From assembly GCA_951406725.2 (NCBI GenBank), contig OX597816.1, forward strand, positions 89,528,001 through 89,592,000: a stretch of 64,000 bases of DNA, written 5' to 3'. Each line of letters begins with the position of its first letter. Positions within the stretch are counted from its first letter, which is position 1. This document shows, piece by piece, positions 959 to 59,535 of this stretch. The notes beneath the pieces were generated by a model. The model was not told where the DNA came from. It ran no database searches and saw only the letters and a program-made list of their open reading frames with translations. The DNA is from Octopus vulgaris. Its lineage: Eukaryota. The position numbers and the translations under genes were made by a program.

Positions 959-1125
959 CACACATTATCTTTCATATACACATACATAGCGGAGGTAAAG
1001 AATACGCACATCACCCGTTTTCAGCCTAACCTTAACCTAAACAGCGGGAGTGCGTATTCTTTATCTTCGCCCATAAATACACATGCATACATCTTTTTTG
1101 TGCCTGAGAGATAGAGAGAGAGAGA

Positions 1126-6455: not shown

Positions 6456-6457
<2 letters not shown>

Positions 6458-6957
6458 GTAAATCTTCGAGGATAATCCGCATTGTTTCCCAAAATGTAAA
6501 GGTCAAAATCCCTAGTGCGTGCTATATACGAGGTTAAAAATGAAAATAATTTTCTAAGCAATGTCCGAGTCTCTATTTGCAGTCCGGCAATGTATATTCA
6601 GACGCATATTCAGACGAAAATACCTTAAGCTAAGCCTGAAAGCAATGAAGTTATAAAAGAATCATCCATAACTTGCAGTAAGCAACATTTATAAAACGTT
6701 CTTACTTTTATTTTTTTATTTTTTGCAAACAAAATGCACAAAAAAGCAACATATTTCCATTATGTTATATATACAATAATAATAAAGGACGTTACCGTAC
6801 ACATTTTTACGAACCAAGGACGTTATATAGACCTCCTTGACTCAAGTTAGAGACGGGGTGCGTATAATACAAAAGGTTTAGGTTTTTCAGAGGTACAGTC
6901 CCCTAAAAGTCCCCTGCGTATTATACTCAACGGCGGACTATACTCGAGGATTTACGG
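6456..6957. mobile_element. pogo/Tc1-mariner-type MITE
   Basis: TIRs CCGTAAATCTTCGAGGATAATCCGC and GCGGACTATACTCGAGGATTTACGG (3 mismatches), TA on both sides, repeated subterminal GCGTATTATAC-like motifs. Confidence 0.85.
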
Positions 6958-7198: not shown

Positions 7199-9119
7199 TG
7201 TATGTATGTATGTATGTATGTATGTATGTATGTATATATATATATATATATGCATGTATGAATGTATGTATGTATACACACATATATATATAGTGAGAAT
7301 TTACAAAAAATCAAAAGACGAAGACGGGTGTGTAAACAACAAACATATGTATTACTTTAACGCCCACCACATATATATATGTATATATGTGGAGAGAGAA
7401 ACAGAGACAGAAACAGAAACAGAAAGACAGACAGCGATAAACCTATATGCATATATATATATGTGTGTGTGTGTGTGTATACATATATACATACGTATAC
7501 ACGCATATACGTATATATACATTAGTATACATGTGAACACATACATAATGTGTGTATGTGTATATGTGTGTATGTGTATGTGTGAAATTTTATGTGCGCG
7601 TTTGTGTATTTGTATGTGCGTGTGTATATGTATGTGTGTATGTGTATGTGTGTGTGGGTGTGTATGCGCTTGTACACCAAAAATGTGTGATTAAAAGTGA
7701 AAGTGAATATGTATTAAAGTGATCTGGTTTATATTATTTTTCCTATAGCGTCCTTTTCGTTTCGTCTTTTTTTATATATTTGTTATCTTTCGACATGGAA
7801 TCAGTGCTCGACTGAAGAAGTTCTGCTTGGCAAAACGCTCTTCTAATTGATTTTCTTTCTTTTAGTTTCTATTTCAACATAGTATATATTTAATTTCTAA
7901 AATACAAGAAGAGCGATTACAATTCAAATACCGAATCAAATTTCTTAACGTCTTCCACCTATCACGTTGCACAGTAACACATCAAAAAAATAAATACGTA
8001 ATTTATGATAGGCACTAGGGATATAATTGTTATTTCGACCTCATTCAGTTCTGCCTAGACAGCCAGCAGTTTAATATTCTTTTGTCTTTCTTATTATCTA
8101 CACTGTCCGATGAAAGTTCTCTTCAGATTGAATTTTTACAAAAGATAGGGAAGACATTATTAAGCTTTGTTTTATTAAACCTCGCCTTATAATGGCATTC
8201 AATGTTTGTTCGATTTCATGCACCGCAATGCTTCGTGAGAGATTGCACAAACCAATTTTCAAGACATAATGCATCTAGACAGAGTGAGTGTGAGAAAGTG
8301 TTTTCATGGATTCAGTTGGCTGATTGTTATTTTCATCTTTCAGAAAAATAATTGCAAATCGAGAAATTGCTCTCTGTCTGCCGTGAATGCTAAATTTCTA
8401 CTACAAGCCATTAACTGTGACATTTCTGTTTCTCATAAATAGAGGATTTTAGGTAATGAAACACAAAAATGACAGACTAGCGGGATTCTCAAAACACCAT
8501 TCTAATTCAAATATATTCAGTTATACTTCGATAACCAACAGTTTATTTATTATTTGGAAAAGATCTCATAAGATCGAAACATTATTAAAAATGTATATTT
8601 TAATAAAACTTTCGATTTATAAAGAAATGCATTCTTCCGGTCTTCAAATAACTGTTCAATGTATATTTGTGTGCGAATAAGTGTGTATGTGTGTCTGATG
8701 CATGTGTGTATGCAAGTAGTCTTGAAGACAAGATTATGTGCGATTTTAACTTTGGTACTTAAAAGAATTTTCACCATTCCTTATCAGTCTTTTATACTAA
8801 ATTTCCAACAAAGGTGACACTACCTAACTCCAGTAACGTGACATGACCTTTTTAGTGTCATCATCAGGCTCTGATGACAGTAATAGTGGCGTGATGTTGT
8901 TTAACGACTTCCCAATGGGTCGCAAAGTATCATGTTTGATACTTAAATATAAACACACTTATACACACATATACTGCTATCACCGAGAAAATCCTTTTCA
9001 CTGAATTTCAAATTATTAAACATGTCCCAGTAATATTCATACATTATGTTGTTTGAGTTTCATCTGTTCGTTGACTTCTCATTTATATTATGCTTAATTT
9101 TATAGTATGGTTTCTATTG

Positions 9120-9325
9120 TAAGCTGGCAGAATCTCTGATACACTGAGCAAAATGCTTAGCGGCATTTCGTCGGTCTTTACGTTTTGGGTTCAAATGCCG
9201 ACGGGGTTCGATTTTGCTTTTCATCATTTCTGGTTCGATAAGCACCAATAGAGCACTGGTGTCGATTTAATCCACTTAGCCCCTCCCCGAAATTGCTGGC
9301 CTTGTGCCAAAATCTGAAACCAATA
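9120..9325 (+). mobile_element. tRNA-derived SINE (GGCAGAAT...GGTTCAAAT...GGCCTTGTGCCAAAATCTGAAAC family)
   Basis: Box-B-like GGTTCAAATGCC. Homologous to copies at 13.0, 26.8, 29.4, 30.2, 42.6 and 59.4 kb. Confidence 0.75.
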
Positions 9326-9353
9326 TAACTTCCATTGCTAAACTTCTTATATA

Positions 9354-12989: not shown

Positions 12990-13195
12990 AGGTCATGGCC
13001 CGAGTATTTTTGGTGGGGGGGGGTGTAGTCGATTACATTAACCCTAGTGCTCGACTAGTACTTACTTTAACAACTCTTTCAGGATGAATGACAAAGTTGG
13101 CTTCGACGGAATTTGAACTCAGAACGTAAAGACAAAAGAAATTCCACTAAGTAATTTGTCCAACGCTCAAACGACTCTGCCAGCTCGTCCCCTTT
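12990..13195 (-). mobile_element. tRNA-derived SINE
   Basis: GGATGAATGACAAAGTTGG...GGAATTTGAACTCAGAACGTAAAG...CTGCCAGCTCG, the reverse complement of the 9.1 kb family. Confidence 0.75.
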
Positions 13196-17725: not shown

Positions 17726-17729
<4 letters not shown>

Positions 17730-18013
17730 GCAGCATGGAAGGTGTTTGTAAGCCATTTAAGAAACACACAAAAGCCGTTTGATTCACTTCAACATTTAAG
17801 CTTAATTTGTCAAAATATTTTCGTCGCTAAAATCTGCGACCTCTCCGCGGAATTTAGCGATAAAAATATTTTGACAAATTAAGCTTAAATGTTGAAGTGA
17901 ATCGAACGGCTTTTGTGTGTTTCTTAAATGGCTTACAAACACCTTCCACGCTGCAGTTGTTTTCGTTCCAGCACACGATCTCAGATCAAATCACTTACTA
18001 TGCGAGTACATCT

Positions 18014-23758: not shown

Positions 23759-23793
<35 letters not shown>

Positions 23794-23794
<1 letters not shown>

Positions 23795-23945
23795 GACGGG
23801 CTTCTTTCAGTTTCCGTCTACCAAATCCACTTTGGTCGGCCTGAGGCTATAGTAGAATACACTTGTCCAAGATGCCACCCAGCGGGAATGAACCCAGAAC
23901 TATGTGGTTGGTAAGCAAGCTACTTACCACACAGTCACTCCTGCG

Positions 23946-23948
<3 letters not shown>
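23794..23948 (-). mobile_element. tRNA-derived SINE head between two (TA)n tracts
   Basis: Minus strand reads GGCGCAGGAGTGACTGTGTGGTAAGTAGCTTGCTTACCAACCACATAGTTCTGGGTTCATTCCC (box A and box B). Confidence 0.8.
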
Positions 23949-24008
<60 letters not shown>

Positions 24009-24242
24009 ATAATTTAAATAATGAGGGTGATAAATTGAATTTAAATCTTAAATAATTATGTTCTCTAACCGGGAACATTAACTGCAGTGAATTATCTTCT
24101 GCAGAACTGTTTCCGGGATTTAGCGCGCCAGAACTGAGACATTTGAATATAACACCAATGTAATCGGTGGAACTGTACACACTTCTAATTTTATGAGGAC
24201 AACCCGTATATAGTTCTACAAATTATATTGAATTAGAACGAT

Positions 24243-24306
24243 CGTACTGAAGAGTCCACGGACGATGTTACGTAAGTAAAATCGTTAATGACGAAATCGG
24301 TCAACA
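24243..24306 (+). ncRNA. Type I hammerhead ribozyme (partly degenerate) in a ~450-bp (TA)n-flanked element
   Basis: CTGAAGA(24247)-GTC...GAC-GAAA(24293)-TCGG-TC. Extended stem II GACGAT/ATCGTT and TTAC-GTAA-GTAA. Stem I is weak. Confidence 0.7.
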
Positions 24307-24580
24307 GTTAATTTTCATTTTGTATATTTTCATCTGTCTTACCCGCTTATGTTCTGGTATTTGCTGAATTTCTATTGAGAACACTCTTTTCTTTGTGGTT
24401 AGATCGTAGGTGATCTTCTAGCATATTGGATGTCCACTTAGTTGTCATCCCTTCTTATACGCATGTATATATATATATATATATATAATCGAAACATGAA
24501 AACACATAGAGAAAACACAACGAGGACGTGGAACAAGTATAGTGTTATTGGACGCTCAGGAAAGGAAAGAAAGAAGGGGG

Positions 24581-24615
24581 ATTTGACGTTTGGAGCGGAG
24601 CTCTTCGTCAGAAAC
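24581..24615 (-). ncRNA. Minimal hammerhead ribozyme (GAAA changed to CAAA) in ~195-bp (TA)n-flanked element 24487-24682
   Basis: Minus strand reads GTTT-CTGACGA-A-GAGC-tcc-GCTC-CAAA-CG-TC-AAAT. Confidence 0.75.
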
Positions 24616-24680
24616 ATAGAAAAAGGAAAGATCCAAGGAAGGAAAGACGGAGGAAAAAAATCGCCAGCAATACACACGCA

Positions 24681-24757
<77 letters not shown>

Positions 24758-26724: not shown

Positions 26725-26963
26725 AATACCTATTTCTTTACTACCCACAAGGGGCTAAACACAGAGGAGACAAACAAGGACAGACAGACGGATTAAGTCG
26801 ATTACATCGACCACAGTGCGTAACTGGTGCTTATTTAATCGACCCCGAAAGGATGAAAGGCAAAGTCGACCTCGGCGGAATTTGATCTCAGAACGTAACG
26901 GTAGACGAAATAAGGCTACGCATTTCGCTCGGCGTGCTAACGGTTCTGCCAGCTCGCCGCCTT
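26725..26963 (-). mobile_element. tRNA-derived SINE, well preserved
   Basis: CGACCCCGAAAGGATGAAAGGCAAAGTCGACCTCGGCGGAATTTGATCTCAGAACGTAAC...CTGCCAGCTCGCCGCC. Confidence 0.85.
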
Positions 26964-29126
26964 GAAATACCGCCATTGCAAATATGTCTCGTTTTCATCG
27001 CTGCAGCAGATGTGCATGAGACCGTTCACTTTTTTCAAGATTCACTATTTGTTATGGTTCCAAAAACTTCCTGTATGTGACAAGACCATTCCCGAAATAC
27101 ACTTCAGGACATGAAACTATTTGCATTGCTATCGACAGGGACATTTACCAGAGCCAGAAAGTAATCCGCACCATTAAAAATAATAGACTACTTATCGAAC
27201 ATGACCATAAAAACGCCAATGTGATGCAATCACAACATACTTGATAATGTTCTATGGAACAGAGACGGAAGTTATGCAGTGTTGGAGATACCAGCTGCCT
27301 AATGGATGGGAATGGATGTGAACATTTCATCTAAATATGTAGGAAAAGAACCTCTATAGCGATCTAATACGTAGCTGACAGCTCTTATATCATAATTGTC
27401 GGTTCTGATTTGTACTCCTTATTAGAGGTGTAGTGGGATGTATGACAATAAATTTGCATAAAAGCCTGAAATATTAAAGTTACATAACAAGGTACAAAAA
27501 TCTGACTCAGCCTCCAAGATTGATTGATTACTACATAAGTTTAGGTTTGTAAACAAAAACAAATACCAATAATTTTCGAATTGAGTTTCTTACATTAAAC
27601 ATGAACATAAAATCATGTTTGAGTGTATGGGACACACACACACACACATGAGTAATCACATAAACTCGCCTATAAACATACAATAAGACTCATTACATGA
27701 TTACAAGTACATTCACATATATACCTATATAGCTGCATAATTTAGCTAATTTGCATATCCACATGCCCGGAGTTACCTTGATTCAAAACAGATAAGCTGT
27801 ATCACTTAGTGACCAATTTCATTTCTATGAAGGAAAAAGTAGAATAAATCAAAACAAATTTGCAAACATACACACATATGAATAGAAATATGCATATATG
27901 AATATACAGGAATGAAGAGAACACAGTATATACACGTGTAAGGGCATATAAGTGTTGATGTGTGTTTGTGTATGAGTGTATACTCTTCGTTCTACCCGTC
28001 TGTTTCCCTCTGTGTATGTGGGCACGCGTGCGCGCATGTGTATGACTGGAGATAGAAATATATATGTTATACAAACCTTGTTCAGAAAGCAATCTATAAG
28101 ACATCGCCGTCACATTACGTGTATGTTTGTAAATACATACACAGAAACACACAGAAACACACACGCACACACACACACATATATATATATGTATGTATGT
28201 ATGTATATACGTATGTATGTATGTATGTCTATGTGTATGTACGTATATATGTATGTAAATATGCATATATATATATATTTATATATGTGTGTGTGTGTAT
28301 GCGTATATTAATGCATATATATATATTGACATACATAAACGAATATTCATGCATACGTCCCTACACACATACATATATACATACATGCATACATACAAAC
28401 TTACAGTCATACATACATACATGCATACATACATACATACATGCATACATACATACACACATACATACATACATACATACATACATACATACATACATAC
28501 ATACATGCATGCATACATACATACATACATATATTCATGGATACATACGTAGATATGTACTCTAGATGTTCAGGCAGTGTTTTTATAAGTAGCTTTCTGA
28601 AAATCTATTAAGATTTGCAAGAAACCATATTTATCCACACGAATATTATTTTACACTCTTATACTTATTAAGCTTCCTTTTATTTTTTTATCATCGCTTC
28701 TTTTTGATTTCTATTTATACCCACCTTCTTTCTATCTTTCTTTTATACTATTAGCCTTTTTGTTTTTAACCTTCATTTTTCTTTCTTTCTTTTTTTTTTT
28801 TTTACATATTTCTACTTCAAGTAACTTCGCATTCCAACAAGAAAATATTTGTCTCGGCGAAGCATTTGAAAATTTCAACGAGTTACATTTATATTGTGGC
28901 TTTGGTAATAATTTCTCGCTTCTTTTGTCTTTAAAGAAAACAACTTTGTAACACACACCCCCACATCCCCCCACATACACACACACACACATACACACAC
29001 ACTCACTCACTCACTCACTCACGCGCGCACAAACTAATATGGTCTGAGATATTGATATGCCAGCACAGCGCTTGTAGTAGGCCGATCAAGTGGTTACTCA
29101 TCGTTGTTAATCTCATCTCATCTCTT

Positions 29127-29366: not shown

Positions 29367-29367
<1 letters not shown>

Positions 29368-29572
29368 TTCAAATTTTGGCACAAGGCTAGCATTTTCGAG
29401 AGAGAGAGAAGAAAGTCGATTTCACCGACCCTAGAGCACGACTGCTACTTATTTTAGCGACCCAAGAAGGATGAACGGCAAAATCAACCGCGGTGAAGTT
29501 TGAAATCAGAACGTGAAGACGGACTAAATGCCGCTAAGCATTTTTTCCGGCGTGCGAACTATTCCACCTGCT
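29367..29572 (-). mobile_element. tRNA-derived SINE with (CTA)n tail
   Basis: Same family core (GGATGAACGGCAAAATCAACC..TTTGAAATCAGAACG), preceded by (TAG)n on the plus strand. Confidence 0.75.
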
Positions 29573-29597
29573 CACTGTCTTAGTAATAATAATAATG

Positions 29598-30200: not shown

Positions 30201-30414
30201 CCTTTCTACTTGTGACACAAGGTCTCATATTTGTAGGGAGGGGAGTAGTTGGTTGCATCGACTCCAGTGTTTCACTGATACTTAATTTAGCGACTCCGAA
30301 AGGATAAAAGGCAAAGTGGACCTCGGCAGAATTTGAACTCAGAACGTAGCGACAAACGAAGGACAACTAAGCATTTCGCCCGGTGTGCTAACGATTCTGC
30401 AAACTCGCCGCCTT
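30200..30414 (-). mobile_element. tRNA-derived SINE
   Basis: CCGAAAGGATAAAAGGCAAAGTGGACCTCGGCAGAATTTGAACTCAGAACGTAGCG...CTCGCCGCC. Confidence 0.8.
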
Positions 30415-35269: not shown

Positions 35270-35528
35270 AAAGGTAAAAGTGATCTGAACGGAATTAGAA
35301 CGAAGAACAAAGAATCGGAAGAAATATCACAAACTTTTATTTCCAACGTTCTAACGAATCTATCAGCTTGCCGTGGGACAGAGAGAATTAATGAAAGTTA
35401 TACACTATGATCTATCCGAATAAAGATAAGAGTAAGGAGTGAAGCAAAACAATACAACCAGAAACTCCACACTATAATAATGATTTTCATCTATTTGGAG
35501 CCTTGGTAGTACATCCAATTTGTCCGTT
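35270..35528 (+). repeat. Local direct duplication, copy 1 (copy 2 at 37339-37598)
   Basis: About 260 bp near-identical, AAAGGTAAAAGTGAT...CCAATTTGTCC, covering a decayed SINE end and the sequence beyond it. Confidence 0.9.
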
Positions 35529-36343
35529 AGGGTTACGGAAAAAAGTGAAAAACGAAGAAATTGGAGGGGGAGGAGGGACAGGACCAAAAAAATTTCAAAA
35601 TACCGATTTTTGGCAATTTTCCGGAATCTCCGTATCCAAAATACTGTGTCAAACTTGTATAGAAATGATTCTAGGAAGTACTTGATAACCTGTGGCATTA
35701 AATCTGACGTTTCAGAAAAATGGGAACATGCAAATGTTATGTAACTGAAAAATAACTATACATAACTCTATATAACGCTGGTATGTGTCTTGTTGAAATA
35801 TTTCCCCACATTTTGTAAGATGGTAAGGTGTTGTTTGGCTGTTATCTCCAGCAGATCGCTTCCATATTGGGTTGCGAGGTGGAGGATTAACAGACACGGT
35901 AGCGTGATGAACTGCCTTACCTCGTTAGCTTCATCTTCGTATGTTCTGATTCCATATCCTGGGGGACTGGACTGTGCCTTTCATCTTGCTATCATGATCG
36001 ATAAAACAAATTACCAATAATATATTAACATCGATTCAATCAATTATTCCCTCCTCCCCAAAATGCCTCAATATTTGGTTATATGCCAACGGAAGAATCA
36101 ATATTGATTTCTTTTGTTTAAGACAAGACCATTTTTCATAGAGGTGTATAGCAGATTAAAGCAACCCTGGCATTTATTTATATCTATGTTATTGATCTTT
36201 TCCCGCAGGCACAAGACCATATATTTTATGAAAAGCTGTATTAGTTGACTGAATTGATTCCGATATTTGACTAGTAAGAAGGCAGCGAGCGGGCAGAATC
36301 GTTAGCACGTCGGACAAATTGTTTAGCGGTATTTCATCCGTCT

Positions 36344-36533
36344 TTTCGGCTGATATACCCTCCAGGCTTCATCAGGAGTCTTGGAGAAATTTCGAACCTG
36401 GGTTCTCATTCCTAAAGTATTTTTCGATGTTATTATTATTATTATCATTTTTATTATTATTATTCAGGTCACTGCCTGGAATCGAACACGGAATCTTGGG
36501 ATTAGTAGCCCGCGCTCTTAACCACTACGTCAT
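36344..36533 (-). mobile_element. tRNA-headed SINE-like element with hammerhead ribozyme tail (3'-truncated)
   Basis: Minus strand: CGTAGTGGTTAAG-AGCGCGGGCTACTAATCCCAAG-ATTCCGTGTTCGATTCC head, then (AAT)n, then CTGATGA-AGCCTG-gagggtatat-CAGCC-GAAA. Confidence 0.8.
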
Positions 36534-37338: not shown

Positions 37339-37598
37339 AAAGGTAAAAGTGATATGAACGGAATTAGAACGAAGAACAAAGAATCGGAAGAAATATCACA
37401 AACTTTTATTTCCAACGTTCTAACGAATCTATCAGCTTGCCGTGGGACAGAGAGAATTAATGAAAGTTATACACTATGATCTATCCAAATAAAGATAAGA
37501 GTAAGGAGTGAAGCAAAACAATACAACCAGAGATTCCACACTATAATAATGATTTTCATCTAGTTCGATCCTTGATAGTATATCCAATTTGTCCCGTT
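37339..37598 (+). repeat. Local direct duplication, copy 2
   Basis: Matches 35270-35528 with few substitutions. Confidence 0.9.
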
Positions 37599-41970: not shown

Positions 41971-42619
41971 TATGACTTCGTCTGTGTAAGAAATGTTAAC
42001 CCCAGTGCTTTGTCAGTTAATGAACATCAGACAAGTGAAGACGAGGATCATGGTGTATACGACGAGACCATCACAACCGAGGAGTTTTACCAGTTATTTA
42101 GTGAAAGTGAGGATGAAAGTGATGATAAGTATAACTCGATTCTTCCTTCATTTATTCTTCCGATTTTTGTCACAATGTTTCATACACTTCCTTATAATTT
42201 AAAACAGTTATTGTATTTTTTTCCAACCATAGCACATATGAGTGCATGGTTTTGTATGTCAGTTGCGGCAAAAGTGTCCTAATAATGAAAGGCATAAATC
42301 AAAAAGTAAAGGGAAGTTATCGATGTAATTAAGTCTCAATACGATAAACAAATCGACTAGCTTTATCAAGGATAAAATTTTACATTATAAACAACGGTTT
42401 CTAAAATGCATGGACTTGTAAGTCATCTTCAGCTTACTGAAAGCTCGGTTATCGAACAACAGCTATGTCGACGCGATTCCTAATCGAGCTTTGCTCTCAA
42501 ACATCAACAAATTCGTTGCGACTTATAGTCGGGTCAATGACAAAATTCCTGATTTGAACCTTGTAAGTCGGAGGTGCATCTTATAGGCGAGGGCGTTTTA
42601 TAGTCGAGTATATAGAGTA

Positions 42620-42764
42620 CATCGACCCCAGTGATCAACTGTACTCTTTTTATCGAACCCGAAAAGATGAAAGGCAAAGTCGACCTCGGCGGAATTTGAA
42701 CTCAGATTATGAATACCACTAAATATTTTGCCCGGCATGCTAACGATCCTGCCAGTCGCCACCT
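42620..42764 (-). mobile_element. tRNA-derived SINE
   Basis: GATGAAAGGCAAAGTCGACCTCGGCGGAATTTGAACTCAGA core. Confidence 0.8.
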
Positions 42765-42980
42765 TGTACATGTGTATGATATTAACATTTAAAATATTTA
42801 GGATCTAAAGAACAGCTAATACAAACAAATTGAGAGAGTTAAAAGTCCTCAATATTGAAATCTTATGAATAGGGATAATTAGAATTTGACTTCTAAATTT
42901 GTATGAGTATACATATACATACCCACTCATGCATTCACACACACACACACACTTGCACACACACACACACATACACACAC

Positions 42981-45592: not shown

Positions 45593-45614
45593 AGTTGAAC
45601 GAGAAGCACATCCA

Positions 45615-45672
<58 letters not shown>

Positions 45673-45694
45673 TGGATGTGCTTCTCGTTCAGCT
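45593..45694. repeat. ~102-bp palindrome: 25-bp unique arms around (AT)n
   Basis: AGTTGAACGAGAAGCACATCCAGCC-(AT)n-GGCTGGATGTGCTTCTCGTTCAGCT. Confidence 0.9.
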
Positions 45695-46368: not shown

Positions 46369-46456
46369 AAATAGGATTCAATACACACGCGCGTTTCAAA
46401 AGACAATACATATTTGTATTGTCCTTTGAAACGCGCGTATGTATTGAATTCTATTT
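46369..46456. repeat. 88-bp palindrome containing a hammerhead 3' half
   Basis: Arms 46369-46410 and 46415-46456. The right arm has GAAA-CGCGCG-TA at 46428-46439. Confidence 0.8.
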
Positions 46457-46902: not shown

Positions 46903-49900
46903 AAAAAAAGTCAAGATAGAAAATGCTAAAATTATTTTATAAAATCATTTCAGTACCGGTTTTAGTCATTGAGACTTTTTCTACTGTAAGTATGGAAGAC
47001 AATTAAATTTTGGAAAAATTAAAAGAAAAGTTTTTTAAAAGAATATTTGCGTAGTAATCAAATATAAGGAGCATTTTCCTCGTTTCTGCCTGTCTCTGTC
47101 TCTCTTGTTTACTCATGTGGTTTCGAGGTCGTTTTGAATTCTTGGCAGGGAAGAAGAAGAAGAAGAAGAAGAAGAAGAAGAAGAAGAAGAAGAAGAAGAA
47201 GAAGAAGAAGAAGAAGAAGAAGAAGAAGGAGGAGGAGGAGAAGGAGGAGGAGGAGAATGTGGGAGTGCCATGATAGTAGTAGGATGTTAAATCGTCAAGT
47301 GCTCTGAAAGTGACTTGTTGTGAATGGTAGTAGTGATTGAATTCTTGAGACATCTCTTTTGAATGTCTTGTTTATAAAATTTGTGTAGCTTTTATTCTAA
47401 ACAGCAATAGTGGTAAAGTAAGGAAGGAGGTGGTGGAGAGGAAAAAGACGAAGAAGAAGGAGAAAGAGAAGGGAGAATAAGAAGGAATGTAGGTGGTATG
47501 ATAGTAATAGGATGTTAAATGGTCTAGTAACCTAAAGGTGGTTCGTTATGGATTATAGCAGTGATTGGGACTGTTTATAATGAATTCTTGGGTATCTCTT
47601 GAATGTATCATCTTTAATATTTGCGTGTGTTTGTGTTATTCTAAGGCTGTGGTGGATATGTCGTTTATTGTAGATGCGTTCAAAAGGGGTCTGTATTTTG
47701 TAATAAAGAGAGTCTCTTTACTAATTCGTTGGCTACAGGTCGTATCATCCCTGAATTGGTAGAGGGAAGAAATTCTGAAGCTTGGATTTTTTGTTATTGG
47801 CGCAAATGTCGATGTGTTGGCTGAATGCTATTTTTCTGTTTCGGGGTATGTTGATCTGGGATCTGTGCAGAGCCATCCTTTGACGTAGACTGTTCTTTGC
47901 TTGACCTATGTATTGTTCTTGACACCCAGAGCAGGTTAGTGCGTATGTGAAGTTGCTTTTCACTGTGAAACGTTGTCCCTGTTTGAAGAACTCTGATCCC
48001 TCAATTAAATTGCCGCATATCCCATAGTTGGGTCTTTCGCATTTAGTTACTGTCGGCTTCTGTGTTGTTGTTGAGCGTATTCGGGCTTGTGTTAGGAGAC
48101 TTTTCATAGATTTGAGTTGTCTCTTGTTTTTTATGATCGTGTGTGTTTGGAGGATTAATTTCATTCTGTGGTCCTTTTTTAGCAAGGGAATGTTTTGAAG
48201 GATGGTGTAGAAGGCTTCATTGTTAAGAGGGTTGTATGTGGAGATATATGGTAGGGCTTTTGGTTGTAAATCCTTGTCTCTAGTGTTTGCATTAGAAACT
48301 ATAATACATATCCTTTTTGCTAGGCTGGAGAGGATATCGTTCTGGTGTGTCTGGGGTGGCATGAGTTGAATGGTAGATATTGCTTGGAGCCCGTGGGCTT
48401 ATAGTATATATCTGTTTCTATAACGTTGTTAGATTTCTTAATGAGGATGTCGAGGAAGGGAAGTTGTTGATGGTTATATTCCATCATGAATTGAATGTTT
48501 ACGTCAAGTCCAATTATAAGTGTTTGGATTTCTTTAAGTCTCTCTATATTTTAATGCCAAAGAATGAAACAGTCATCTAGGTATCTCTTCCAGTTATTTT
48601 CTATTTAGAGGGAGTATGGGCTGCTGTATTTTCTAGAACCTTACGATAAAGACTAATTTCTAGATATCCCATGACTAGGTTGGCAAAGGAGGGGGCCATT
48701 CTCGTACCCATCGCAGTCCCCGATTTTTATCGATAGAAGTTGTCTTTGAAGACGAAGTAGTTATTTTCCACGATGAATTTTAGCCCTTCTATCACGAATT
48801 CTTTTTTGATGCGATGTGGGAGTTCGTTGGCGTGATTCTCTAGCCAGAATTGAATTGCCTCTGTTCCTAGGTTGTGGGGGATATTGGAATAGAGGTTGAC
48901 TACATCAAAGGATACTAGTAGGGTGCTTTTGTTTATTGTTTCAGGAAGGTGATTGAGCCTATCCAGGTCGTCCCTTATATAGCTTTTGACATGTTTGAGG
49001 AGTGGTTTTAAGAAGATATCTACAAAGTTACTGAGGCGGTGGGTTTCGCATGCGGGACCTGCTATTATAGGTCTTAATTTGAGGTCATTAGGATTAGGGA
49101 CTTTAATTATTTTGTCTAGGCTATCTTGCATGCGTTACTTATTTTCTCACTTTTGTGTATCTTTGGAATACCGTAGAATTGACTGGTTTTACTTTTCAAA
49201 TTGGTCATATAGTCATATTCTTTGTCGGTGAGCCCTTCTCTGTATAGGTTTAACATGGATTTTAGTTCTCTCATTATTTTCTGCTGACTGTAGTGTTGGG
49301 CTTTTTCATAATAGGTTGTGTCTTCCAATATGGATAGTACTAGAGTTATATAGAATACTGTGTCCATTAAGACAACTGCACTCCATTTATCAGCCTCTTT
49401 GATTGTTATTGATTTGTCGTCCTTTTTTTTGCTGAAGTTTGATTTGTGTTTTTGTCAGTTCATATGTTGATATGGGTAATTCGAGATGTGTTCACAGAAA
49501 TGATCAAAAGTTTTGTTCTTACCTTTTGAGGGGGTGTAGTTACTTCTGTTTCGGACCAACGATTCATCCTCGTTTTATTTGTCGTATAGCTCCTCAGCGA
49601 GTCGTAATTTTCTACAGAATTCAGCGATGCCTTCTTTCATTTCATTGCAGTTGGGGCGTTGTAGGGTGGGTGTAAACTTTTGCCCTTTGCAGAGTATATT
49701 GACTTGGTTTGCTGTCAGTTCTTTGTGAGTTAGATTGATAATTTTTATCACTTCTGGTTCCTCTTGTCTGTTTGGTGATATCTTGTGCCTCTGTGTTTAC
49801 GTATTGGGTCTAGAAAATGATTGCAGTGGTTGGGACGGTAACTATTATGTAGTTGTTCCTTGTTTTTGCGGGATGCCCTGTTGTGATTAATGGTGTGAAT

Positions 49901-50056
49901 TCTTGGAACAGTATTGAAAAGTGTGTCCCGATATCCCATGTTCGGATGTGGTGTTTTAGTGGGCCGTCGTTGGTAATTAATGCATGTGGTACGGGTTTGT
50001 TGTGCATGGTTTTTTTCCATATATGTCAACTCGTGTGTTCCTTTTCAACCTTCTAC
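46901..50056 (-). mobile_element. Near-full-length decayed Neptune-type Penelope-like retroelement (RT, Cys linker, GIY-YIG)
   Basis: IINLTHKELT...KGQKFTPT; FYGIPKIHK; LRPIIAG; LVSFDVVNLYSNIP; GTAMGTRMAPSFANLVMG; WKRYLDDCF (~48560-48593); LPFLDILI; KCERPNYGICGN; YALTCSGCQEQYIGQ...LRQRMALHR. Stops and frameshifts present. Both ends abut (TA)n. Confidence 0.93.
46951..46986 (-). ncRNA. Decayed hammerhead at the 3' terminus of the Neptune element
   Basis: Minus strand reads CAG-TAGAAAA-AGTC-tcaat-GACT-AAAA-CCGG-TA-CTG. All three stems are intact and the core bases are mutated. Confidence 0.65.
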
Positions 50057-50122
<66 letters not shown>

Positions 50123-50372
50123 TTAAAAAATAGGATAAAATCTTAATAAGAAATCTTAACAAGAAATTATCGGGTAGTTAGCGTGAAAAACCTCATAAGA
50201 GAAAAAAAAACTGTAAATTTGTTTTTTGAAAATATTTAATTATATTGTATAGAGGGCATTATTACACATAAATGCAACACGCTAGGAGGGACTCTTAAAG
50301 TCATAAATACCAAATATAAACACATTATACCGAATGCAATTCTCAAAGCGAGTCATTTAAAAACAGAATTTA

Positions 50373-50435
50373 GCTCCATATCACCTGTGATTTCGTAATT
50401 AACACGTTATACGCGTCCCTTGCTCTCAGTGAAGC
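50373..50435 (-). ncRNA. Hammerhead ribozyme copy with a 1-nt core deletion
   Basis: Minus strand reads GCTTCA-CTGAGA-GCAA...TTAC-GAAA-TCACagGTGA-TA-TGGAGC. Confidence 0.75.
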
Positions 50436-50893
50436 GAATCCAAAATATATCATAAATAAACAAAAGCATCATACCAGGCGGACAACCGTAGCCGTCATCG
50501 TAGCAGAAGGAAATGTTTACCCATCATACATTTATGTAAATGGCAGGCTCTTTTGAATTGCACTTCGGTAGACAACGTGCTTTTTCGGAACAAATTTAAA
50601 AAATAGGATAAAATCTTAATAAGAAATCTTAACATGAAATTACCGGGTAGTTAGCGTGAAAAACCTCATAAGAGAAAAAAAACTGTAATTTTTTTTCTTT
50701 GAAAATCTTATTAAGAGTTTATCCTATTTTTTAAATTTGTTCCGAAAAAGCACGTTGTCTCCTGAAGCGCAATTCAAAAGAGCCCGCATTTACATAAATG
50801 TATGATGGGTAAACATTTCCTTATGCTACGATGACGGCTACGGTTGTCCGCCTGGAATGATGCTTTTGTTTATTTATGATATATTTTGGATTC

Positions 50894-50957
50894 GCTTCAC
50901 TGAAGAGCAAGGGACGCGTATAACGTGTTAATTGAGAAATCACAGGTGATATGGAGC
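50894..50957 (+). ncRNA. Type I hammerhead ribozyme
   Basis: GCTTCA-CTGAAGA-GCAA-gggACGCGTataACGTGTtaa-TTGA-GAAA-TCACagGTGA-TA-TGGAGC. Six-bp stem I with one G-U pair, AUA site. Confidence 0.85.
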
Positions 50958-51089
50958 TAAATTCTGTTTTTAAATGACTCGCTTTAAGAATTGCATTCCG
51001 TACAATGTGTTTATATTTGGTAGTTATGACTTTAAGAGTCCCTCCTAGCGTGTGGCATTTATGTGTAATAATGCCCTCTATACAATATG

Positions 51090-51156
<67 letters not shown>

Positions 51157-51357
51157 GTACATATATGTATATATATATGCAAATATACATATATATGTAT
51201 ATATGTATATATATGTATATGTATATGTATGTATATGTATATAAATATGTATATGTATATATATATGTATATATATATATATGTATATATGTATGTATAT
51301 GTATATGCATATATATGTATATGTATATATAGATACATGTGTGTATATATATATATA

Positions 51358-51389
<32 letters not shown>

Positions 51390-51454
51390 CATATACATAT
51401 ACATATAAGCATACATATATACATATATATATATACATATACATATATATATAT

Positions 51455-51592
51455 ACATAAAGGGTTTAACTTTAGGGCGTTTCGTCAGACCTCAAAACCT
51501 GTTGGCCAAAGACCTCTTTAAAATATGGAGGGGAAAGGCACCGTTACGAATGTAAGTAAGGGGATTTTCTCCTTTCGTCATTGGCTATTGAC

Positions 51593-51596
<4 letters not shown>
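51455..51596 (-). mobile_element. Inverted partial copy of the 52678-52930 hammerhead element
   Basis: Reverse complement of ~52678-52819 with several substitutions. It ends right after hammerhead stem II, running into (TA)n. Confidence 0.85.
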
Positions 51597-51657
<61 letters not shown>

Positions 51658-51720
51658 CATATATATATATACATATATACATATATATATACATATATAT
51701 ATACATATATTCATATATAA

Positions 51721-51772
<52 letters not shown>

Positions 51773-51858
51773 AATCCAAACGGGAAACAAAAAAACAACA
51801 ACAAAGGAACAATTACAGTATTATTATTAATAGGCGCTCAGGAAATGGAAGCAGGGAG

Positions 51859-51893
51859 GTATGACGTTTCGAGCGGAGCTCTTCGTCGGAAAC
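51859..51893 (-). ncRNA. Minimal hammerhead (CUGACGA changed to CCGACGA) in element 51767-52062, same family as 24.5 kb
   Basis: Minus strand reads GTTT-CCGACGA-A-GAGC-tcc-GCTC-GAAA-CG-TC-ATAC. Confidence 0.75.
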
Positions 51894-52196
51894 ATAAAGA
51901 AGGAAGAGAGAGGAAAGAAAGATCCCGGAGCGGGCAACGGAGATAGAGAAAAAAACGACTGGTGTTAGGAGTTACACATGGTGAAAGGCGGATGTTTACG
52001 ATAACAAGAGCAAAGTGGGTTTTTAAAGGCAAAAGAGTGGAGACAAGGTTGGTAACGCAACAGATGTGTGTGTATGTGTGAGTGTGTGCGTGTGCGTGTG
52101 TGTATGTGTGTGTGTATATATATATACATATATTCATATATAAATACATATATATATATATATATATATATATGCATATATATATATATATATATA

Positions 52197-52264
<68 letters not shown>

Positions 52265-52433
52265 AACAAAGTTAAATGCGATACAATAAAATTAATTATA
52301 ATCGCCGGTGTACCAGTACACGCCATATATTATTCATATATAAATTACATTTAAAGCGAAGTGTGCACTAGATACACAAAAGCTGGATAAATTTAGTGAG
52401 ATGAAAATTAAAAACTTTTACAAACTTAGCTTT

Positions 52434-52506
52434 TCTTATACTGCAGTTTCGCCAAATTCAGTAATAAAAATAGTATTTATTTACTCAGGCTGGCTCTTCA
52501 GTAAGA
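52434..52506 (-). ncRNA. Intact minimal type I hammerhead ribozyme in ~335-bp (TA)n-flanked element 52261-52598
   Basis: Minus strand reads TCTTA-CTGAAGA-GCCA-(36 nt)-TGGC-GAAA-CTGCAG-TA-TAAGA: perfect stem I, G-C opened stem II, palindromic stem III, GUA site. Confidence 0.92.
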
Positions 52507-52594
52507 TTCCTGTTAATTATGGGAAGACCATATTAATAGACCCATGTGCGTCTACTGAAATGCTCTTTCTAAACTATTCAAAACACTGCACAGA

Positions 52595-52675
<81 letters not shown>

Positions 52676-52781
52676 GTATATAGTCGATAGCCAATGGCGA
52701 AAGGAGATAATCCTCTTGCTTACATTTGTAACGGTGCCTTTCCCCTCCATATTTTGAAGAGGCCTTTGGCCAACAGGTTTT

Positions 52782-52842
52782 GAGGTCTGACGAAACGCCA
52801 TAAAGTTAAACCCTTTATGAACGGGAAACCCAGGGTAATCCC
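52782..52842 (+). ncRNA. Hammerhead ribozyme candidate in element 52678-52930
   Basis: GAGGT-CTGACGA-aacgc-CATAAAG-ttaaacc-CTTTATG-aacgg-GAAA-CCCaGGG-TA-ATCCC. Confidence 0.7.
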
Positions 52843-52952
52843 ATAAACCGGTCTTCCCCAGTAAAATATATATACCGCTCTACATCTTAGAGTGTGCTTC
52901 TTCTCCGGTTTTTATATTTTCTACAAGCGGTATATATATATATATATATATA

Positions 52953-53084
52953 TATAATGTACCATCTTAAAGAAGCGGAGATCTGATGTTGGCTATATAT
53001 AGAGAGAGATTTAATGTTGGTGATATATATACATATATATATTGCGAACATTAAATGTCCGCTTCATTAGGATGGTAGATTATA
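52953..53084. repeat. Diverged ~40-bp inverted repeat around a TA-rich spacer, each arm a hammerhead 5' half
   Basis: Arms 52953-52993 and 53044-53084. The right arm on the minus strand reads CCATC-CTAATGA-A-GCGGACAT-tta-ATGTTCGC. Confidence 0.7.
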
Positions 53085-53639
53085 GTTTTGCTCCCACATT
53101 AATTCACAAGGTTCCAGGGAATGCATGTTATATTTAGCGCAAGTGACCTAAGGGTTACACCAGCTTATTCAACCGAGAACCGATGGGCAAGCCAGAGACC
53201 CTATACATAAGCACTCAAGATGCAGGAAATAGCAGCCAAAATGCTCTTTTAAAATACACTCCACCATAATAGAAATGGGAAGAACACATCAGCGAATCCA
53301 TAAATGACAGAACGGTCATGTCTGGAATGCCTCTACTCATAAAGCCACTCAATCAGTTTTTTCATTAGGCTAAACAACAACCGACAATTGGGTAAATATA
53401 GTTTATCAAAGTGCTATGTCGCCTACTGCGTTGAACTATCACCCTGCAGTCTGCCATAGTGTACAGAGTATGGTAAATCATCATTGAATGTCAGATTGTG
53501 ATGTATGGTACTCGGTTAGGCAAAAGTATTATGTAAGTGAAAACACAGACTCCTATAGGTCTCTCCGAATAAGGCTGACCTGATTCTAAACAGTAACAAC
53601 TACATTCCCTCTATTTATCTGACAAAATCTTCAGACTTG

Positions 53640-54900
53640 AACTTTGTAAATGGTGACACTTACTCTCATACATAACTTGTTCATGGCTCTATGTAGTAAT
53701 ATAAGCCGTTGTGAAACTTTGGCACATACAATGTAGATGTGTTCTGTCCATCTCACCTTGTTGTTTATAGTTACACCTAGAATCTCAAGCTTCTTTTTTT
53801 ATTCCCAAGCTGTAATTCAAGGTTTGGTGGGCATTTTTGTTTTTGTTTTGTTTTGTTTTGTTTTTTGTTTTGTTTTGTTGAATCCGTCGCTTTTTACTCT
53901 CATAGCTCAAACATTACTTTCCAATCATCTGTCGATTTTTCATCCTAACAATAGCTGTTAATTTAGCTTCTGCAAGGTCGTTTTCTCTTGCTCGTGTTTT
54001 CTGATGCAGTTATCAGCATACACGTACAACAAGCTATTACTGACGTTATCTAGAATATCTATAAAAACTATTAATAAAAGTTGCCTGTATATTGATTTAT
54101 ATAGAATTTACGCATTGATATGTAACAAATCAGAGGATTAAAATGGTTATCTCTGATGGATCTCCTATTAAGATATATTCGAAGCATCCTTAGCAGTTCT
54201 TTACGTAGTGTAGATTCCATTATACCACATTCTGTCAATGTTTCTTTTGATACTCCAATAGCATTTATTTCTTGACTCACGTCTAAATATTTATTTGATG
54301 TTAGGAATTACCTTCTAGAAATGAGTTCATTTTTCAAGTCGATTAGCAGTTATTTATTAATTGGTGATAAATTTGCTGATGATGTTCGGTAATGTTAATG
54401 ATCGGTTGTTTACTAGATTAGATCTGGATTTTCTCTGGTATATAGGACTTCTTTGAGTGTTTTTCTATTAGTTTAGAAATTCGCTGCAAATATAGCAGAG
54501 GTTAAATTGATGATACAGAGTTGAGACTGGTTTATTTCAGCATTCTTCCAAATATTGTTCTAGAAGTTGATCAACAATGTTAGGTGTATCAGATTTGGCT
54601 TCTTGTAATATTTCCATAATATTTATTGTTTTTAAGATCAAGTTGTTTCGCTGTACCAGAAGATTATTTAATACTCGGTGATTGTTCATCTTTATTTGGT
54701 GTGCAACTCTAATTATATGATTTCCGTCCTTAACAGAAGAAACACACACTCAGGAAAGACAATACATTCGCAGACAAATGTAGTCCGTTTGATCCCATTA
54801 GTAAGCAGTTTATAGTACAATTGGACTAGTAGCTAACCATAACGACAATATATTACTTCTCTACCACATAAATAATGGAGAAATTATCACCAATAGAAAG
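53640..54900 (-). mobile_element. Decayed CR1/L2-group LINE RT remnant
   Basis: Minus strand gives LYVYADNC (~54005-54030, compare YADD) downstream of an LDVS-like motif. Heavily disrupted. Confidence 0.45.
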
Positions 54901-57444: not shown

Positions 57445-57492
57445 CAGACACATATATATATATACACACACACACACACATACACACACACA

Positions 57493-57602
57493 ATTGCAGC
57501 ATAGGTGTTTATAAGCCATTTAAAAACAAACACAAAAACCGTTAGATTAACTTCAACGTTTAAATTTAATGGTCACTTGCTTGCTATGCAAGTACATCTC
57601 CG
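57493..57602. mobile_element. Internally deleted relative of the 17.7 kb fold-back element
   Basis: AATTGCAGCAT..GGTGTTT.TAAGCCATTTAA...CTTCAAC.TTTAA.TTTAAT is joined directly to the ...CTATGCAAGTACATCTCC tail, between (CA)n and (TA)n. Confidence 0.75.
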
Positions 57603-57648
<46 letters not shown>

Positions 57649-59362
57649 CCCCGAATAACAATATACGAAAAGGATATTAAAAACAAATGAAATATAAAAC
57701 TGCGTTCTTCCGAAATGAAGCGATTAACATATCGATTGCATCTACTAGCGGGAAAAAATCAAGGGACGTAACTCTTTAAAACGTTTAGCAAGTTATTTCC
57801 CCTCATAGAAGACCACTTCCTATTGTAGAATATTTTGTAATTTACTTTTAGGGAAGAAGATTTTACCGTTGAAAGCACTCGCGAGTATGTGTATGTTTTT
57901 TTTTTGTATTTTTTTTTGCGTATGTATGTGAAGAATTAAAAGATGTTGATAACACATTAATAGCATGTAACGGCGGTATACGCACATACACATATACACA
58001 CACAAACATATACGACAACGGTACTTATTTTTTTCTAAACCGGCTAAATATTCTATCGGACGTTTTTTGCCGAACCGCTATGTTACGCGACATAAACACC
58101 ACTGATTGTCAAGTGGTGGGAAAATGTTCAAACACATATATGCATACACACATATATACATGGAAACATGTAGCTGAGAAGTAAGCTTCTTGCCATACAG
58201 CCACAATGAGCTACCACACCAACATTTGGGAGAATGTTCTTGCTACGCATATCTGTTCTGGTCCACATGCAGAAAAAAGCCACTCAGCTTACTGGTATAT
58301 CAAACCACTAGCGAACACACAAGCGCGTTGTCTGCTGCCTGTGACTTAGTGGCTTTTCTGTCCCTATAATAATGGTCAGTGCACCTCCACCACTCAGGTA
58401 CTCTGACCAACACGTCTCTGCTTCTCGTTACTCTTGATGCATCTCACAACCCATTCCCGTCCACGTTAACCATGGTGTCTAGCACATCCTTTCAAGATCC
58501 TCTAGGATCGTCTTTTTGTACATATCTTCCTAGCAGGTGTTGACCTGCAATGGCTCAAAGGTTTAAACGAAACATTAACAACATCGAGCTCACCGATATC
58601 AAAAGGCTTGCAACAATCATGAGCTCTGGTCCTTTCTCCAGAAACTGTTAGTAAAAAAGAAATATGCTGCTTGTGTATTTATCATTATTAATTATTAATG
58701 CTTCCTCCGACAAACACAAGGTAGGCAAATCAATGTAGCTGTCACTGCAAACTCCTAGTTTACGCTTGGCTTAAATAGTTATTTGTTATAAGTTCTCTTC
58801 ATGTGCAAAGAGATGAGAGGAGAGATACTTGTCTGTGAAACATGTCAAGGTAATTTCCTTTGCTTTTTGTGTGTTCAAAGAGAATAACAAGATATAGTGA
58901 CTTCTTTTTTAATATTCTACAGAAAAAGTCTAAAACTGTAGTTTAGCTAATCTCAATTTATCTTACGTTTTCTACAGCACACTGTATTACGAATAGACAT
59001 TAAATAACTATTTAATTACTCCGCCGACAAACGTACAGTATGCAAATTAGTTGTGCCATTACAGCCAAGCTCTAAATAGTAATTTCTTATCAGCTCTCTT
59101 TGTGAACTGTGAAATAAGAGTTATGCTTTTGTAATGGGCTAGAATAATTTCGTAGCATATATGTTGCTTATATTTTCAAGGGGCATACAGAAAGAAACAA
59201 TCGGAAGGTCGTGGATGTGCTAAACTTCAATTTGCGTAATTATTTTAGGATTTCAAACTTATTTAACACGCATCTACTTTCACTTTCCTTGTGCGTCGTC
59301 TTTTCTATATTCCATCTCCTCTACAGTACTTTGCCGTTTGTTCCACTCTCCTATTTCGACGA

Positions 59363-59535
59363 ACTGGCAGAATCCTTAGCACGTCGTACAGAATGCTAAG
59401 TAGCATTTCTTCCGACTCATTACGATGTGAGTTCAAATTCCGCCGAGGTCGGCTTTGCCTTTCATTTTTGGAGCACTTGGGTCAATGTAATTGGATAGGC
59501 CCCTCCCTCAAAATTTCAATTCCTGTGCCTATAAT
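59363..59535 (+). mobile_element. tRNA-derived SINE
   Basis: CTGGCAGAATCCTTAGCAC...GAGTTCAAATTCCGCCGAGGTCGGCTTTGCCTTTCAT. Confidence 0.75.

Follow-up and report, generated by a model that had tools for sequence, protein, structure and literature searches.

Within a 64,000-nt stretch of the Octopus vulgaris genome (assembly GCA_951406725.2, contig OX597816.1, positions 89,528,001 to 89,592,000 of the forward strand; hereafter the window, numbered from its first letter), a TA microsatellite is interrupted by a stack of six inserts. Very probably, short non-coding elements from the world of Penelope-like elements (PLEs) have inserted into this microsatellite on four or more occasions, each bearing the type I hammerhead ribozyme that typifies PLE terminal repeats. 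They would be either 5'-truncated ends of PLEs or retrozyme-like units that are non-autonomous. The stack holds four unrelated hammerhead folds; one of the families is high-copy with 3' ends that abut TA repeats, and its head-to-head pair recurs at another locus. There are thus four hammerhead-bearing families in the stack, and one ribozyme is predicted to be intact.

Architecture of the stack

The window is animal-type DNA with a GC content of 29-40% and 115 tandem-repeat rows, mostly microsatellites. At 50055-53084, six non-repetitive inserts, A to F, are set apart by (TG)/(TA) arrays in the following order:

50055-50120, (TA)n(TG)n array, the left target
50121-50712, minus strand, left arm of A, about 1.25 copies of a 473-nt unit with a terminal direct repeat of about 120 nt
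50706-51088, plus strand, right arm of A, an inverted, 5'-truncated copy joined head-to-head
51085-51459, degenerate (TA)n/(TATG)n array
51456-51598, minus strand, B, the short arm of the B/E pair, with CUGACGA at 51488, stopping inside helix II
51593-51767, (TA)n array
51767-52063, minus strand, C, a lone insert whose type I hammerhead, at about 51860-51897 (core 51889), is of the minimal form
52065-52264, (TG)n(TA)n array
52265-52596, minus strand, D, a single insert with a type I hammerhead, predicted intact, at 52434-52506 (core 52501)
52598-52682, (TA)n array
52678-52930, plus strand, E, the long arm of the B/E pair, reaching about 110 nt past B's end
52931-52956, (TA)13 array
52953-53084, F, a fold-back with 41-nt arms that are 83% alike and a TA-rich centre

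Each insert sits between alternating purine-pyrimidine repeats, and all six arms stop at a (TA)n, TA-rich or (CA)n repeat. The spacers are unlike in unit and in length (26 to 375 nt), and the stack accounts for 25.5% of the pure TA bases of the window. In an all-against-all comparison of the inserts, B and E are the one related pair, other cross-matches being 19-letter ones between A and D. None of the inserts contains a long open reading frame (ORF).

Hammerhead motifs of the stack

The type I core for which we tested (CUGANGA, GAAA and UH in type I order) is the consensus as depicted in PMC4209133. The core is exact in D, the A right arm and E, and carries one lesion each in the A left arm (a deletion) and C (at U4). 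Helices I, II and III are pairable in A, D and E, and helix I is weak in C; helix III may be palindromic and formed in a dimer. The G10.1-C11.1 pair is present in D, C and the A left arm, broken in the A right arm and absent in E.

A strict type I descriptor has a single match on both strands of the 64 kb, namely D at 52501 on the minus strand, against a mean of 0.017 in 60 shuffles. Allowing one lesion gives six matches, three of them in the stack (A right arm, C and D), and misses E. A further loosened descriptor yields eight matches in the window, four of these in the stack, with a mean of 0.045 in shuffles of the six inserts and never more than one in 1000 shuffles. Shuffles of the whole window average 2.0 matches, hence most matches outside the stack are due to chance; those at 8867, 45743 and 53634 were set aside as probable chance matches on this account.

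D combines a 5-bp helix I, a 5-bp helix II opened by G10.1-C11.1 and bearing a long loop, a palindromic 6-nt helix III and a GUA cleavage site. Alone among the copies of the stack, it is predicted from its letters to be capable of cleavage still, probably as a dimer. The hammerhead of C has U4 read as C, an unpaired A after A9, a 4-bp helix II, a palindromic CG in place of helix III, a GUC site and a weak helix I; apart from the U4 change it matches the published minimal form, G10.1-C11.1 included. A TA-flanked relative of C lies at 24488-24680 (core 24611), with the canonical U4 but a changed GAAA, bringing the C copies in the 64 kb to two. Both C and D are without an inverted repeat, each representing a single arm. 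Exact motif scans with the C and D hammerheads found no match in viral contigs, and that with C none in metagenome contigs. A joint alignment of seven hammerheads failed to register the cores and was not used.

The B/E pair and its family

B and E form an inverted pair with 12 mismatches in 147 letters (8.2%), nine of which are transitions. Their heads begin at the same letter and the pair points outward. B lacks GAAA, helix III and the cleavage site and is hence no ribozyme. E presents a whole type I hammerhead fold at 52781-52843, with the core at 52787, GAAA at 52825, a near-palindromic helix III and a GUA site but no G10.1-C11.1 pair. A reading of B/E as devoid of a hammerhead was rejected for E once the relaxed core search and the read data were examined.

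The read data are contigs from four of 24 listed sequencing runs (X1, X3, X4 and X7: two samples of one organism and one each of two others), compared over 52683-53830; the listing contained no RNA run, and its small-share rows were left aside. In these, the depth of E peaks at 1125, 1258, 1537 and 694 times the flank in all four runs from the three organisms, a ratio of summed contig depths that is a rough sign of high copy and not a copy number. Among the 40 of 83 variant positions listed, several fall on the ribozyme. A52783>G (0.92 in X1) closes an A.C mismatch with C52841 in helix I, and G52785>A (0.29) and T52839>C (0.24), both in X1, each replace one G.T by a standard pair. Paired positions of helix III are affected by C52831>T (0.41) and G52833>A (0.42) in X1, with similar shares in the four runs, and A52820>G (0.76, X1) gives an added pair in helix II. 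The free N7 position varies (0.37, X1). The E-family variants tend to restore stems I and III.

Behind 52860, 52874 and 52912, the family has loose ends that continue into AT-rich or TATATA letters. A joint to the opposite strand, seen in X1, X3 and X4, marks a further locus carrying a head-to-head pair; the short arm there stops at 52819, as does B. Upstream of 52745, the depth is about a hundredfold lower and the loose ends differ. We considered 52868-52930 as a separate tiny inverted-repeat element and rejected this; contigs extend from 52683 to 52912, and the loose ends before 52868 correspond to E's own tail. At seven of the nine listed positions where the X1 majority differs, B carries the minority letter of E, five of the nine resting on few contigs. 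The shared head letter, the opposite orientation and these shared minority letters favor a single insertion event for B/E, into which C and D came later; two separate insertions of the same subfamily could also have produced the pair.

Element A and fold-back F

The left arm of A is a partial tandem: 50121-50241 recurs at 50594-50712, with a spacing of 473 nt and five mismatches plus three gaps in about 120 letters. The inverted copy differs by 14 mismatches over 382 aligned letters (3.7%), and the 3' end of the right arm falls about 120 nt short of that of the left arm. Both arms have this repeated piece of about 120 nt upstream of the hammerhead part. The left-arm hammerhead (50370-50437) has suffered a 1-nt deletion in CUGANGA while keeping the G10.1-C11.1 pair; that of the right arm (50892-50959, core 50900) has a near-palindromic helix III and an AUA site, with C11.1 changed and the G10.1-C11.1 pair thereby broken. 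Each arm thus has one core lesion and the two lesions are different, which indicates an intact parent hammerhead. As the template had the same 120 nt twice, 473 nt apart, it is likely to have been a short RNA, tandem or circular, and not the terminal part of a long element.

F is an old fold-back, near single-copy and unrelated to the hammerhead elements. Neither of its strands contains GAAA, and an exact CUGANGA is absent as well. The bin of its left arm is close to flank depth in X3 (51.9 vs 53.1) and X4 (40.5 vs 45), the locus contig at 80% likeness not having covered it in X1 and X7; the bin of the right-arm end is at flank depth in all four runs. The high depth of the center (52995-53072) is ascribed to its TA-rich letters. 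F thus has the terminal inverted repeats expected of miniature inverted-repeat transposable elements (MITEs) but not, where covered, their high copy. Single contigs connect it to the right flank in X3 (52964-53630) and X4 (52973-53830).

The initial annotation of this DNA, made from the letters alone, had seen at least five different ribozyme elements here. Its six segments with TA-rich spacers are present essentially where it placed them, and its tandem-plus-inverted element (A), its inverted half with a partner (B and E) and its intact hammerhead (D, the strict-descriptor match) were all recovered, as was its minimal hammerhead (C), albeit with one core change. The count of ribozyme elements falls to four families (A, B/E, C and D), as B and E belong to one family and F, a genuine fold-back, is without a core and therefore not a ribozyme element.

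Proposed mechanism and order of insertion

Known PLE biochemistry offers a route to such a stack. For a lizard PLE, nicking of AT-rich DNA on both strands and two internal starts of the reverse transcriptase (RT) have been described in vitro, with hammerhead cleavage not needed for insertion (PMC11167929). By extension, an RT/GIY-YIG protein acting in trans would nick AT-rich DNA on both strands, and reverse transcription primed at two internal sites of the RNA would yield two outward arms with unequal 3' ends, as in A and B/E; a single truncated arm, as in C and D, would be another outcome. Each insertion would split the TA array into two, and these arrays may lengthen by slippage and be targeted again. 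The likely order would be B/E first, C and D later into its center, and A, later than B/E, beside it. Most copies in the stack are now mutated.

The divergence between arms is lower in A (14/382) than in B/E (12/147; Fisher p=0.042), which would make A the younger if arms are identical at birth. C and D lie within the more diverged B/E, and the less diverged A is outside it; hence, the linear order is not the time order. The stack contains four of the six TA-flanked hammerhead insertions of the window (p=0.04), or four of seven with the motif at 36.4 kb (p=0.07). As the region was chosen for its density, this is no evidence beyond length-proportional targeting.

Alternative explanations

Several results weigh against repeated insertion of hammerhead-bearing PLE-type elements. 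Rfam models gave no match at the gathering score in the window; among 86 matches up to E=10 in 49900-53300 there was no hammerhead, these being microRNA and other hairpin models over TA repeats and fold-backs. None of five minimum-energy folds of monomers shows a complete three-way hammerhead. The dimer folds lie 4.9-12.4 kcal/mol below twice the monomer, a difference without a control that we do not count as evidence. The loosened descriptor was set after E had been noticed by eye. The paired variants of the E family, each scored by position, may reflect one subfamily split, and its G10.1-C11.1 pair is absent with the majority letters too, among the listed variant positions. Neither A nor D has a second locus in the data examined. 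The 3' offsets of about 110-120 nt exceed the described tails of 30-40 nt, and no insert shares sequence with the neighboring PLE (see below), the best match being 23 letters.

Of the other explanations, the strongest sees in the inserts nothing but 3' ends left behind by long autonomous PLEs, and in the stack a graveyard of truncated insertions; we regard this as a serious contender, slightly short of being evenly balanced. The drop in E depth upstream of 52745 with its differing loose ends is what one would expect from 5' truncation or from several families with one end in common, and most minimal animal hammerheads are single and thought to stem from truncated PLEs (PMC4209133). For B/E, C and D, this account is compatible with the one that we prefer. 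It fits A poorly, where the 120-nt repetition at a 473-nt period needs a short tandem or circular template, and no insert holds a long ORF. A different origin would make the inverted pairs and F MITE-like, TA-targeting DNA transposons with incidental hammerhead-like motifs. Fold-back TA-targeting DNA transposons do exist (MuTAnT, PMC4486113), further fold-backs lie beside repeats in the window (989-1070, 6456-6957, 17726-17958 and 45593-45694), and F fits the shape. The outer ends of A and B/E are nevertheless unequal, unlike matched terminal inverted repeats, no inverted repeat occurs in C or D, four cores were found where 0.045 are expected, and the arms of F stay near flank depth. The copies of E, moreover, already show a conserved core and no fixed symmetrical termini. 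We hold a MITE-like origin to be very improbable.

The initial annotation had further proposed a repeat-spacer-like record of serial insertions into a target that regenerates. The notion of a TA target that was hit repeatedly, split and still available holds up, given the high-copy E with TA at its 3' ends and the second TA-flanked copy of C. An ordered record in which position equals age could draw on the alternating purine-pyrimidine repeats bounding every insert and on the four of six TA-flanked insertions falling on 25.5% of the TA (with the reservation on density made above). Against it stand the enclosure of C and D by the more diverged B/E with the less diverged A outside, the mixed orientations, spacers that differ in unit and range from 26 to 375 nt, and a second, otherwise composed stack at 23762-24757. 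The pile of inserts is real but it is not an ordered insertion record, and we see scant prospect for that idea. We likewise hold it to be highly unlikely that misassembly, or fold-back chimeras across low-complexity TA, made the stack. Tandem and inverted PLE insertions do trouble assemblies (PMC8557442), and no contig, among those compared over 52683-53830, spans a TA array. The inverted arms, however, differ by 3.7% and 8.2%, mostly by transitions in B/E, unlike a self-folded read; X3 and X4 each have a contig that connects F with the right flank; and three runs show the B/E geometry at a further locus as well.

Relationship to known systems

The hammerheads resemble those of metazoan PLEs, including the min-HHR (Cervera and De la Pena 2014, PMC4209133), in being of type I with a short palindromic helix III or none and, in C and E, an unpaired base after A9; minimal forms and those of the dimer type with a palindromic helix III are both published there. 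Also shared are the several unrelated families per genome, the single motifs and the opposite-strand pairs 100-700 bp apart. They differ in that A and D bear long extensions of helix II and no unpaired base, E has no G10.1-C11.1, and four families lie here within 3 kb. The partial tandem with an inverted, 5'-truncated copy and the unequal arms are reminiscent of the Neptune, Nematis, Hydra and Naiad PLEs (Craig et al. 2021, PMC8557442; Frangieh et al. 2024, PMC11167929), as are the (TA)n or AT-rich targets and the lack of a clear target-site duplication; tandem and inverted copies, tails and a (TA)n bias are described in PMC8557442. Unlike these PLEs, the inserts are short and non-coding, with offsets of about 110-120 nt in place of 30-40 nt.

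With the animal non-LTR retrozymes (Cervera and de la Pena 2020, PMC7229834; Li, Clavereau and Pollet, bioRxiv 10.64898/2026.07.22.740005), the inserts share a short, non-coding type I unit of low GC. Short non-autonomous hammerhead units are published in both sources, solo monomers have been described too, and the 473-nt unit of A lies within the retrozyme range of 51-972 bp. The definition of an active non-LTR retrozyme calls for at least two consecutive units, each with a whole hammerhead, and for expression as both linear and circular monomer RNA. No such run of units occurs here: A comprises about 1.25 units, with a single hammerhead on each strand, and the others are single, which places them outside the definition. 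MuTAnT (PMC4486113), for which longer TA flanks are reported at occupied than at empty sites, is similar in its (TA)n insertion and, in the case of F, in the fold-back, but is a DNA transposon with matched terminal inverted repeats and no ribozyme, and F is not high-copy. Our literature search, with subscription journals, Repbase and supplements outside its reach, found no description of several hammerhead families stacked within a single TA array and none of these families by name. Overall, the inserts are explained by known PLE behavior; they are real, and were partly overcounted.

The neighboring Penelope-like element and other repeats of the window

A decayed autonomous PLE (47003-50054, minus strand, with an approximate 3' boundary) lies to the left of the stack and encodes an RT, a degenerate Zn-finger-like linker and a GIY-YIG domain, disrupted by stops and frameshifts. 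What we take to be its RT and endonuclease motifs are spread over three frames at 49391, 48909, 48714, 48583, 48463, 48041 and 47912. The GIY-YIG domain was recovered by Pfam with E=7e-4 and 20.3 bits, under the cut-off of 22.6, and by the Atlas eukaryotic GIY-YIG clusters at 0.97. The 5' end of the element abuts the first repeat array. As judged from its letters, the domain order and linker fit the Neptune/Nematis type as presented in PMC8557442. In its 3' part (47003-47745, minus strand), what may be a hammerhead relic directly follows the GIY-YIG frame, and its letters after the first core box resemble, by eye, the junction of the E family; beyond it, a 100-nt stretch is present in two diverged copies that surround a (GAA)n-rich region.

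The second, smaller TA stack (23762-24757) comprises a 154-nt dispersed repeat, a 450-nt insert and the C-family copy, each between TA arrays. The 450-nt insert has a hammerhead relic (core 24247, plus strand) with helix I unpaired and a helix II motif like that of A. The fold-back at 45593-45694 has 25-nt arms (96%) and a 52-nt TA array at its center, a geometry like that of B/E before anything was nested in it. Further fold-backs, mostly beside microsatellites, are found at 989-1070, 6456-6957, 17726-17958 and 46369-46456, with a partial copy of 17726-17958 at 57490-57570. To the right of F, 53190-53345 holds two short low-copy repeats; in each of the four runs, their depth is about 5-16 times that of the flank.

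At 36340-36530 on the minus strand, a tRNA-like head (seen by eye and not called by ARAGORN) and a TAA run precede a hammerhead-like core (36375), followed by a member of a dispersed repeat family. An old dispersed repeat family, probably a short interspersed element, has eight copies with about 70-80% identity (9122-9326, 13010-13194, 26794-26964, 29367-29581, 30203-30414, 36279-36348, 42615-42766 and 59357-59473). A 200-nt direct repeat, 96% alike, occupies 35326-35525 and 37395-37594, 2069 nt apart.

Implications

Nothing here alters the existing knowledge of PLEs or hammerheads. A bolder proposal, which we consider rather doubtful, is that such stacks are common in this genome and constitute nested chronologies of PLE and retrozyme families that would order their waves without a clock, and that B/E is a family of about a thousand copies with a working hammerhead whose helix II opens without G10.1-C11.1. 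In any case, the hammerhead of the E family is a candidate for a natural variant of the core, and head-to-head pairs could serve to map alternative reverse-transcription start sites of PLE-type RNAs. The stack suggests that microsatellite-targeting retroelements and TA arrays may feed each other, the split target regrowing and several ribozyme families coming to lie within a few kb. In such settings, the divergence of head-to-head arms would provide an internal age and nesting an order, and a genome-wide count would cheaply rank the ages of the families.

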